From sequence record NC_014792.1: a stretch of DNA of 64,000 nucleotides; one strand, given 5' to 3'. The translations under genes and the position numbers were made by a program. Within the stretch, counting starts at the first letter, position 1. Every line of letters starts with the position of its first letter. Below the pieces are notes generated by a model that searched no databases, was not told the origin of the DNA, and saw only the letters and a list, made by a program, of their open reading frames with translations. Positions 37,124-38,099 of the stretch are shown here, one piece after another. Origin of the DNA: Escherichia phage vB_EcoM_VR7.

Positions 37124-37370
37124 AATGCTCTTCCAGGAAGTCCAGGAGGGCCGTGGCGGAGGTAAAGATACCACCATCAACCTTGTCTTCATCTTGATAG
37201 TCCATCACATCCAGACCGATACGTCCATCAGTTAGCGGCCATACGCTGAAAAAGTATTCATAACCTTTTTCAATTTCTTCAATCTTGCGAAAAATCTTTT
37301 CGATATTGTTCATAGGTTTCCACATCTCTACTACTTGAGTATAAATATAGTATATCACCAAAGAGGACAT
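37113..37370 (-). CDS. Hypothetical protein (85 aa or shorter)
   Basis: ORF; start uncertain. Confidence 0.3.
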   Translation of the reverse strand: MSSLVIYYIYTQVVEMWKPMNNIEKIFRKIEEIEKGYEYFFSVWPLTDGRIGLDVMDYQDEDKVDGGIFTSATALLDFLEEHYVR

Positions 37371-37373
37371 ACA

Positions 37374-38099
37374 ATGAATTATGCTTTAATATATGAGAAT
37401 TTAATGAACCGAGCCAAATCTAGAAAATTGACTGGATACAAAGAATCTCACCATGTTGTTCCTCAATGTTTAGGCGGACCAGATACAAAAGAAAACCGAG
37501 TTGATTTAACGCCAGAAGAGCATTATCTAGCACATCAACTATTGGTAAAAATTAATCCGGAACATAAAGGATTGAAATATGCTGCCTATATGATGACTAT
37601 ATCACCAGATGGTCGTCGGCAGAATAATAAATTATTCGGTTGGGTAAAGCGAGATTACCTAAACAATAGAATTCAATCATCTGGAATGAAAGGGAAAAAG
37701 CATAAACCCGAATCAATTCAATTGATGAAAGATAAACGTGCTCTCCAAGAAATCACCGAAACAACTAAGGCCAAAATATCTAAAACAAAAACTGGCGTAA
37801 AATTTACAAAAGAAGCACTAAAATCATTTAATGAAAAACGTTCCACAAACCAAGCATGGATTGATTCCAATTTTAGGCCATGTAAAGAAAGCACCAAATC
37901 TAAAATTGGCGATGCTAATAGGGGACGTGTTTTTGATAAAAAGACCTGCCCTCATTGTGGTAAAACTGGAGCAGGTCCTAATATGAAACGGTATCATTTT
38001 GATAATTGCAAATCAAAAGTCGCCAAATGCGACCTGCCAACATTCAACACCAATACGACGCCACATCTCGACAACATTTTGCCTATCGTCAACGGCTAA
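37374..38099 (+). CDS. HNH-family homing endonuclease (Mob-like, free-standing)
   Basis: N-terminal HNH motif [31 protein letters not shown]; C-terminal CPHCG...C zinc-finger-like; lone plus-strand gene among minus-strand genes; 3' end overlaps the 3' end of pseT. Confidence 0.7.

Follow-up and report, generated by a model that had tools for sequence, protein, structure and literature searches.

Free-standing homing endonuclease genes (HEGs) of the T-even phages cut a neighbouring gene and co-convert its flanks (PMC2988022). The gene treated here is found in a stretch of 64,000 nucleotides from Escherichia phage vB_EcoM_VR7 (sequence record NC_014792.1; the whole stretch is called the window below), where it is transcribed towards pseT, the RNA-repair gene for polynucleotide kinase/phosphatase (Pnkp), and overlaps its 3' end. 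Comparison of sequences makes it likely that the gene belongs to a free-standing cassette that encodes a Mob-type HNH homing endonuclease and has specialised on the 3' coding end of pseT. It is a selfish element of an ordinary kind with an unusually informative architecture, and its main features are the following:

37374 to 38099, plus strand: HEG coding sequence, 241 amino acids plus stop (726 nt), Mob-type HNH / NUMOD3 / CCHC; the same coding sequence is found in phages VR25 and SP18
37340 to 37347, plus strand: T4-type late promoter TATAAATA, kept upstream of HEG homologs
37362 to 37367, plus strand: Shine-Dalgarno sequence AGAGGA, 6 nt before the ATG; homologs have AAGGAG at the equivalent position
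37449 to 37535, plus strand: HNH catalytic motif (HH...N...H...H), amino acids 26-54
37947 to 38009, plus strand: C-terminal zinc-finger-like motif CPHC...HFDNC, amino acids 192-212
38013 to 38921, minus strand: pseT, 302 amino acids, matching Pfam HAD_PNKP (1.2e-55) and AAA_33 (4.6e-22)
37113 to 37313, minus strand: cd.4, the left-hand neighbour, from the VR25 annotation and the junction alignment
38013 to 38099, both strands: overlap of 87 nt; the plus strand encodes the HEG tail (amino acids 214-241 plus stop), the minus strand the final 28 codons and the stop of pseT
38061 to 38087, minus strand: recoded pseT block, the D-R-Q-N-V-V-E-M-W codons, which start at the second Asp of DDR
37320 to 37341, plus strand: 22-nt box CCACATCTCTACTACTTGAGTA, which abuts the late promoter and ends 2 nt inside TATAAATA

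The Mob-type HNH enzymes, among them T4 MobE (Wilson and Edgell, 2009, PMC2790892; PMC2988022), have a homologous N-terminal HNH domain in common with the window protein. Like mobE, the window HEG is free-standing, sporadic among relatives and placed beside its presumed target, a gene of nucleic acid metabolism. The two differ when it comes to size (241 amino acids in the window, 141 in MobE), the window protein having a C-terminal region with NUMOD3 and a CCHC finger, and to locus, which is pseT for the window HEG and nrdA/nrdB for MobE. The window HEG also has a late promoter of its own, while T4 mobE is described as promoter-less; it opposes its neighbours and overlaps its presumed target, and it is a nuclease by prediction from sequence. 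T4 segD is likewise a free-standing HEG that is opposite to its neighbours (PMC2988022), but no promoter has been found for segD, which is situated between late genes, whereas the window HEG has a consensus late promoter and is found in an early region.

In the intronless homing of SegF and SegG, the cut is made in an adjacent gene, part of this gene is obligatorily co-converted, and the carrier allele differs at the site (PMC2988022). The same layout is proposed for the window. SegF and SegG are, however, GIY-YIG enzymes encoded in the same orientation as their neighbours, and they cut hundreds of bp away, while the putative site in pseT would be only about 50-75 nt from the insertion edge. 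On the other side of the HEG the window also has a truncated version of this site.

A comparable layout is known from the mobile open reading frames (ORFs) that form 'gene hybrids' in fungal mitochondria (Allomyces atp6; Glomus atp6, atp9, cox2, and nad3), where the gene core is followed by an inserted, diverged C-terminal coding end, the endonuclease ORF, and a remnant of the native C-terminal end (PMC3630166). The 22-nt box of the window, a putative native remnant, would correspond to the remnant in these hybrids, which still resembles relatives without the element. The fungal cases are organellar and use LAGLIDADG or GIY-YIG enzymes, while the window is that of a phage with an HNH enzyme. 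The window HEG is further found on the opposite strand, and its putative remnant is trimmed to 22 nt and conserved across distant lineages, suggesting a function.

Judged by its sequence, the window gene is a Mob-type free-standing HNH/NUMOD3 HEG, and thus a member of a known family. Residues 1-75 are 51% identical to the N-terminus of T4 MobE over 75 amino acids (E 1e-25), and the protein matches PHROG 655, 'homing endonuclease', at 4.5e-63. It has 922 database homologs at E <= 1e-5, and its homologs are spread over 1068 phage records in which they adjoin many different genes. NUMOD3, a nuclease-associated DNA-binding module, is found with 22.0 bits, above the Pfam cut-off of 20.4. The original prediction was that of an HNH homing endonuclease with a canonical motif in its N-terminus, and it is supported by the MobE homology, by PHROG 655 and by the conservation of the HNH residues; H26 and H27 are present in at least 90% of 22 aligned homologs, and N41, H50, and H54 are invariant. 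In the same alignment C192, C195, H208, and C212 of the zinc-finger-like motif are nearly invariant. The predicted local distance difference test score (pLDDT) of the HNH domain in an AlphaFold model is above 90, and a search of PDB sequences aligned the HNH region locally, at marginal E-values of 0.06-0.15, with the HNH domains of IscB and McrA.

The window derives from a T4-type phage of the Gaprivervirus group, and positions 36500-39500 are 98.3% identical to Escherichia phage vB_EcoM_VR25. The plus-strand ORF with its stop at 38099 is present as predicted. TTG 37335, given as its start, is only where the open frame mechanically begins; the real start is ATG 37374, since the homologs all start with MNY, AGAGGA is found 6 nt upstream, and the VR25 start is identical. 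Both VR25 and SP18 have the same 726-nt coding sequence annotated as 'homing endonuclease, similar to T4 MobE', and a gene of the same HEG clade carries an annotation in VR25, SP18, and KM16. The HEG had also been described as the only plus-strand gene in a long minus-strand region, which is true between alt.-3 and rnh, about 27 kb according to the VR25 annotation. The label of a second HNH endonuclease had to be dropped, as a tblastn search and an HNH motif scan of the ORFs in the window gave no other ORF that resembles the HEG protein or bears an HNH motif.

The octamer TATAAATA is the T4 late-promoter consensus. It occurs 19 times in the window, compared to 4.8 expected copies, and most of the copies precede genes homologous to T4 late genes, at a distance of 20-40 nt from the start. 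A minus-strand sigma-70-like site with a score of 11/12 is found at 39761-39733, upstream of the pseT unit. On these signals pseT appears to be part of an early-type transcription unit, while the HEG has a late promoter. A MotA-box-like sequence at 37384-37391 is situated within the HEG ORF and was judged, by sequence reading alone, to be a chance match.

The HEG is present or absent at a fixed locus, and it is better conserved than what surrounds it. Besides the window it is carried by VR25, TH40, TH57, SP18, PSD2001, 212, and P479 (n = 7). The nucleotide identity of the HEG in the seven carriers is 97.2-99.7%, without indels, while their flanks drop to about 55-80% identity with the window. 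VR5, VR20, and TH15 have no HEG, and in these phages the stop of pseT and the start of cd.4 share bases as TAATG. An empty site had been proposed for relatives, and the alignments with these three define the DNA they lack:

37314 to 38012, plus strand: 699 nt missing from the empty-site relatives VR5, VR20, and TH15, shorter than the 726-nt HEG ORF

Frameshifts in orthologs and a misplaced stop had been named as possible objections. The window-type copies in the six fetched genomes (VR25, TH40, TH57, SP18, PSD2001, and 212) are intact, with neither indels nor internal stops, and the 726-nt ORF ends at the identical stop in these genomes and in P479; the HEG stop is therefore no sequencing error. 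Codons 1-212 have accumulated 19 synonymous and four non-synonymous substitutions among the carriers, a pattern indicating that the body of the HEG is under purifying selection. A scan of IMG/VR with the HEG protein returned VR25 as the sole close relative, and the contexts of more distant homologs were obtained through exact-protein look-ups. Open-access literature queried for pseT together with homing endonuclease, or for VR25, contained no description of the element.

The sequence that moves with the HEG includes the end of pseT. Two independent comparisons of HEG carriers with HEG-less phages show that the final 73-90 nt of pseT are recoded and move as a block together with the HEG. The window differs from the HEG-less TH15 at 22/86 positions in the overlap (25.6%), while only 5/414 positions differ in the left flank (1.2%) and 20/801 in the right (2.5%). 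SP18 has flanks that each are about 24% diverged from the window, but an overlap in which 3/87 positions differ. Compared to VR20 the situation is reversed, with divergences of 6.3 and 7.8% in the left and right flanks and 21/86 differences in the overlap, so that SP18 combines VR20-like flanks with a window-like overlap. The mobile unit is sharply delimited, and its left boundary is the cd.4 ATG. On the right side the last TH15 differences are at 38084-85, and SP18 turns VR20-like between 38094 and 38103. KM16 provides an independent replicate, in that its flanks are near-identical to those of Moon and CF1 while the last ~82 nt of its pseT are heavily rewritten. Here the tract reaches 46 nt past the HEG stop, and the recoded tract is therefore not set by the extent of the HEG ORF.

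The seven HEG-less alleles (TH15, VR5, VR20, MN01, Moon, CF1, and T4) all have the codons GAY GAC CGN NNN CAA GTN GTT GAR ATG TGG, encoding DDR-(S/T/A)-Q-VVEMW. The four enterobacterial alleles linked to a HEG encode instead DDR-QN (window), DDR-DT (KM16 and the lineage P0002) or DDR-NS (the lineage P0003), and in three of the four the D-R codons are changed to GAT AGR. The second Asp of the DDR motif in the window corresponds to Asp278 of T4 Pnkp, numbered by counting back from the C-terminus, and Asp278 is a ligand of the essential Mg2+ (PMC3592404). The recoded pseT stays full length with DDR...GDF, the replacement end being in frame and linked to the HEG. A further patch of variation, at 38022-38034, corresponds to the top of the hairpin described below, which covers the end of the pseT coding sequence.

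The box at the HEG promoter is a copy of the pseT sequence of HEG-less phages, namely the antisense of the T-Q-V-V-E-M-W codons, two codons downstream of the Asp278 codon. It matches pseT of VR5 at 20/22 positions, those of T4 and MN01 at 19/22, and that of TH15 at 18/22, while the match to the pseT allele of the window itself is 14/22. Over the HEG-less alleles the range is 17-20/22, and every one of these matches occurs once in its locus, where chance would give none. The box is also found before the late promoter in the KM16, P0002, P0003, P0010, and L018 lineages; it is not evident in P0016, P0021 or P0024. An extension of cd.4 at its N-terminus (MWKP-) from the box was rejected, as a 1-nt insertion in TH57 and 212 breaks the frame.

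The box may be a scar, a leftover of the native end of pseT from the entry of the cassette, with its substitute end, into the reading frame at ...GAGTA^CGGTC.... It may also be a functional mimic of the homing site placed over the late promoter, and this is compatible with its being a scar. Only 22 nt, or seven codons, of the native end are left; they travel with the cassette and are conserved in distant lineages. Some function for the box is favoured because it is conserved across lineages whose proteins are only 56-63% identical. A precedent is the autorepression of I-TevI, where a sequence resembling the homing site is found at the enzyme's own late promoter (PMC2988022); the match is 15/20 for I-TevI and 20/22 in the window. 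I-TevI differs in being intron-encoded and of the GIY-YIG family, and for the window the homing site is proposed from sequence and the operator role is putative.

A more far-reaching version of the anatomy is that the cassette sits inside the pseT frame at the Arg279 codon, beside that of the catalytic Asp278, and that pseT goes on working because the cassette has brought a recoded substitute of about 24 codons antisense to its own 3' end. This would make it a phage counterpart of the fungal mobile-ORF hybrids, with the 22-nt piece as a homing-site mimic (an I-TevI-style operator or a half-site that is bound but uncut), and with a clade that tracks Pnkp genes across T4-like phages. We regard this combination as tentative, and somewhat more likely to be wrong than right. 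If the architecture holds, a free-standing HEG could occupy coding sequence without the help of an intron or intein by means of a rewritten gene end, and the operator idea from I-TevI may extend to free-standing HNH enzymes.

The association with Pnkp genes extends beyond the window-type copies. Contexts were examined for six further clade members that share at least 55% identity with the window HEG; all are convergent with a Pnkp gene, and the 3' ends overlap. The overlaps between HEG and Pnkp gene are of different lengths:

Window: 87 nt
KM16 (Moonvirus): 36 nt
P0002: 36 nt
P0003: 36 nt
P0021: 25 nt
P0024: 9 nt
P0010: 4 nt
P0016: 4 nt

In the overlaps of 4 nt the stop codons of the two genes share bases, for example in the palindrome TTAG/CTAA. 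The left-hand neighbour varies among the lineages, being cd.4 in the window and another small gene in KM16. In L018/L019 a HEG homolog with 56% identity (2501-3166, plus strand) is divergent from a Pnkp gene (1503-2459, minus strand) that encodes a protein of 318 amino acids with reversed domain order, phosphatase first and kinase second. The CCACAT of the box coincides there with the ATG-TGG start of this reversed-domain Pnkp gene.

The position of the HEG had been taken to suggest homing into the junction between cd and pseT. The empty sites are indeed found there, but the element follows the 3' coding end of pseT and not the intergenic junction as such, because clade members are convergent with Pnkp genes whatever their left neighbour and because the terminal nucleotides of pseT move with them.

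The sequences show the anatomy, the pattern of presence and absence, the boundaries of the mobile unit, the pattern of selection and the linkage to Pnkp genes throughout the clade. From these patterns we infer a nuclease activity, an exact target and an immunity of the carrier. The cassette would be arranged on the plus strand as the box, the late promoter with the Shine-Dalgarno sequence, the HEG ORF and, coded on the other strand, the recoded last ~24-28 codons of pseT. In the late phase of a mixed infection, pseT of phages lacking the HEG would be cut by the enzyme at or near CCACATYTCAACKACTTG-NNN-CGGTC, a candidate target that is antisense to the DDR(S/T/A)QVVEMW codons, that of Asp278 among them. 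That the target would be one site of about 27 bp in pseT is suggested because the recoding hot spot at the DDR-xQ-VVE codons and the box converge on it. Recombinational repair from a genome with the HEG would then copy the cassette together with the recoded pseT end, and the stretch of pseT between cut site and cassette would necessarily be co-converted. The carrier would itself be immune, with the site rewritten in its working pseT and truncated in the box.

This gives a precise target candidate, the 27 bp of pseT around the Asp278 codon, for an uncharacterised enzyme of the Mob family. TH15, VR5, VR20, and T4 would be natural substrates, while VR25, SP18, and KM16 would have natural immune alleles. 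The candidate target beside the Asp278 codon, the replacement gene end that is carried along and the copy of the site close to the promoter are all worth following up.

Several observations weigh against a cassette specialised in this way. The phage P896 has kept most of the recoded pseT allele without a window-type HEG, carrying a SegD-like HEG instead, so that the recoded allele need not be accompanied by the HEG. Among the distant carriers, P0010, P0016, P0021, and P0024 keep CGGTC in their own pnk, and P0010 has ACTTG as well; the immunity rule is therefore not universal, or the specificity has shifted. The recoded tract could also be just the original donor pseT, too diverged for internal crossovers. 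The P0003 lineage has an N-terminal frameshift in the HEG, in a short GCGAAAA tandem repeat (L098 ~2872-2960; L099), so that the called protein begins after the HH of the HNH motif; this HEG appears to be in decay, or there may be an assembly error common to two runs. As for the protein, the Pfam HNH model (PF01844) reached 13.3 bits on the HEG, below its cut-off of 21.4, and Foldseek found nothing with E < 0.3 in the PDB for the full AlphaFold model, which has a predicted template modelling score (pTM) of 0.42. PF01844 covers the divergent Mob subfamily poorly, and the assignment rests on the MobE homology and PHROG 655 instead.

Some of these points would fit a HEG that is an inactive or domesticated relic, spread passively by the ordinary recombination of T4-like phages, with the recoded pseT end as linked donor sequence. 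Many phage HEGs decay, as the frameshifted P0003 lineage may illustrate, T4-like genomes are highly mosaic, and P896 demonstrates that the pseT allele is separable from the HEG. A relic is nevertheless unlikely in view of the strong purifying selection on the body (the 19 synonymous versus four non-synonymous changes given above), the intact catalytic residues and the conserved promoter and Shine-Dalgarno sequence. Near-identical HEG copies amid flanks with as little as about 55-80% identity also speak against it, as does a recoding that is focused on one conserved site in three HEG lineages, with different replacement codons in each.

The overlap with the 3' end of pseT, estimated at about 87 nt in the original prediction, is exactly 87 nt and in a codon-on-codon antisense register. 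The pseT stop of the window lineage is TGA, which is TCA on the plus strand, and no HEG stop is left at the boundary. The overlap has its length because the HEG, without a stop of its own, is read on antisense to pseT as far as the first TTA leucine codon of pseT, which gives TAA. All of the seven substitutions in the tail (codons 214-241) are non-synonymous for the HEG, while six of the seven are silent for pseT, and the contrast to the body of the HEG is significant (Fisher p = 1.6e-4). Most HEG homologs end 2-5 amino acids past HFDNCK and thus have no tail, and the pLDDT of the tail is ~36. Because of this substitution pattern, the shorter homologs, the variable overlap and the low pLDDT, the tail of 28 amino acids is regarded as an unconstrained read-through passenger, its sequence dictated by pseT. 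The 87-nt overlap is then a by-product of a tail-to-tail insertion and not a designed feature. For annotators this means that a long 3' overlap of a convergent HEG may be an artefact of read-through instead of a functional extension.

Were the 28-residue tail to contribute to endonuclease function, perhaps as an additional arm for DNA binding, the overlap would itself be selected. In favour of this, the full-length tail is found in 7/7 carriers, and the antisense frame is open in HEG-less alleles too. The substitutions, which all alter the HEG protein and mostly spare pseT, point the other way, as do the existence of homologs without the tail, its varying length among the copies that abut Pnkp genes and its poorly predicted structure, and such a role is most improbable.

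Antisense interference with pseT had also been proposed, and the overlap could in that case be a regulatory device in which a late convergent RNA, antisense to the pseT 3' end, shuts pseT down. RNA antisense to pseT is probably made late in infection from the HEG promoter, since this promoter points into pseT and no convincing terminator is found before 38523; past the HEG stop there is no strong plus-strand terminator, and the next weak candidate is at 38523-38541. It has further been noted for T4 that invading endonucleases can create antisense transcripts, a cost that such insertions carry in general (PMC2988022). That the overlap exists for the sake of such control is nonetheless very unlikely. 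Its length varies between 4 and 87 nt in the clade, HEG-less phages manage without the control, and any convergent insertion yields the same by-product. With pseT apparently in an early unit and the HEG promoter late, most pseT expression would also precede the antisense RNA. Interference may occur, but nothing in the sequence suggests that it is selected, and it is unnecessary for explaining the anatomy.

The end of pseT within the overlap also contains a hairpin:

38017 to 38035, minus strand: hairpin at the end of the pseT coding sequence, with UUUUGA after it, a terminator-like match

The hairpin, with UUUU(G/A)A after it, is kept in alleles with and without the HEG by means of different stem and loop sequences (VR5, VR20, P896). 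In the empty-site phages it directly precedes the coupled cd.4 start. A role as a cassette-specific terminator was ruled out, as HEG-less alleles have an equivalent hairpin; it may serve for termination, stability or coupling.

The junction between cd.4 and pseT is a hot spot for other insertions as well. In P896 the SegD-like HEG is found there on the pseT strand (L011 2307-3026), MN01 has an extra ORF of 66 codons (L012 2302-2499), and in T4 cd.5 overlaps pseT by 31 nt (L016 5806-6033). Upstream of pseT, an ORF of 178 amino acids (39214-39750, minus strand) is found in VR25, VR5, VR20 and others, while SP18, TH15, and 212 have a clean gap of ~500 nt. On the other side, the cd.1 region (35400-35700) is 99-100% identical to VR25 and to VR5, which is classified as a Dhakavirus, while its identity to the other Gaprivervirus relatives compared is only 46-80%. 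A sharp mosaic boundary is found near 35700-35800.

One more ORF in the window resembles a homing endonuclease, the only other one found, and it is probably the 'first' endonuclease implied by the label of a second:

50922 to 51470, minus strand: 182 amino acids, between genes 32 and 59, matching PHROG 7504 'homing endonuclease' at 1.3e-48

It had no Pfam match of any family at E <= 0.01, and VR25 has no gene at this position. In T4 the same position between genes 32 and 59 is occupied by segG. With YFYIGSK near its N-terminus the protein looks Seg/GIY-YIG-like, and nothing marks it as an HNH enzyme. An open frame of 339 codons (49793-50812, plus strand) covers gene 32 (49829-50740, minus strand) from end to end on the opposite strand; its length is unusual for an antisense frame, and there is no evidence of its being a gene. 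Finally, a protein of 427 amino acids encoded at 11816-13099 (plus strand), between rnlB and hoc, has strong collagen triple-helix repeats (Pfam 9.3e-42), and the annotation of VR25 gives its counterpart as a tail fiber protein.

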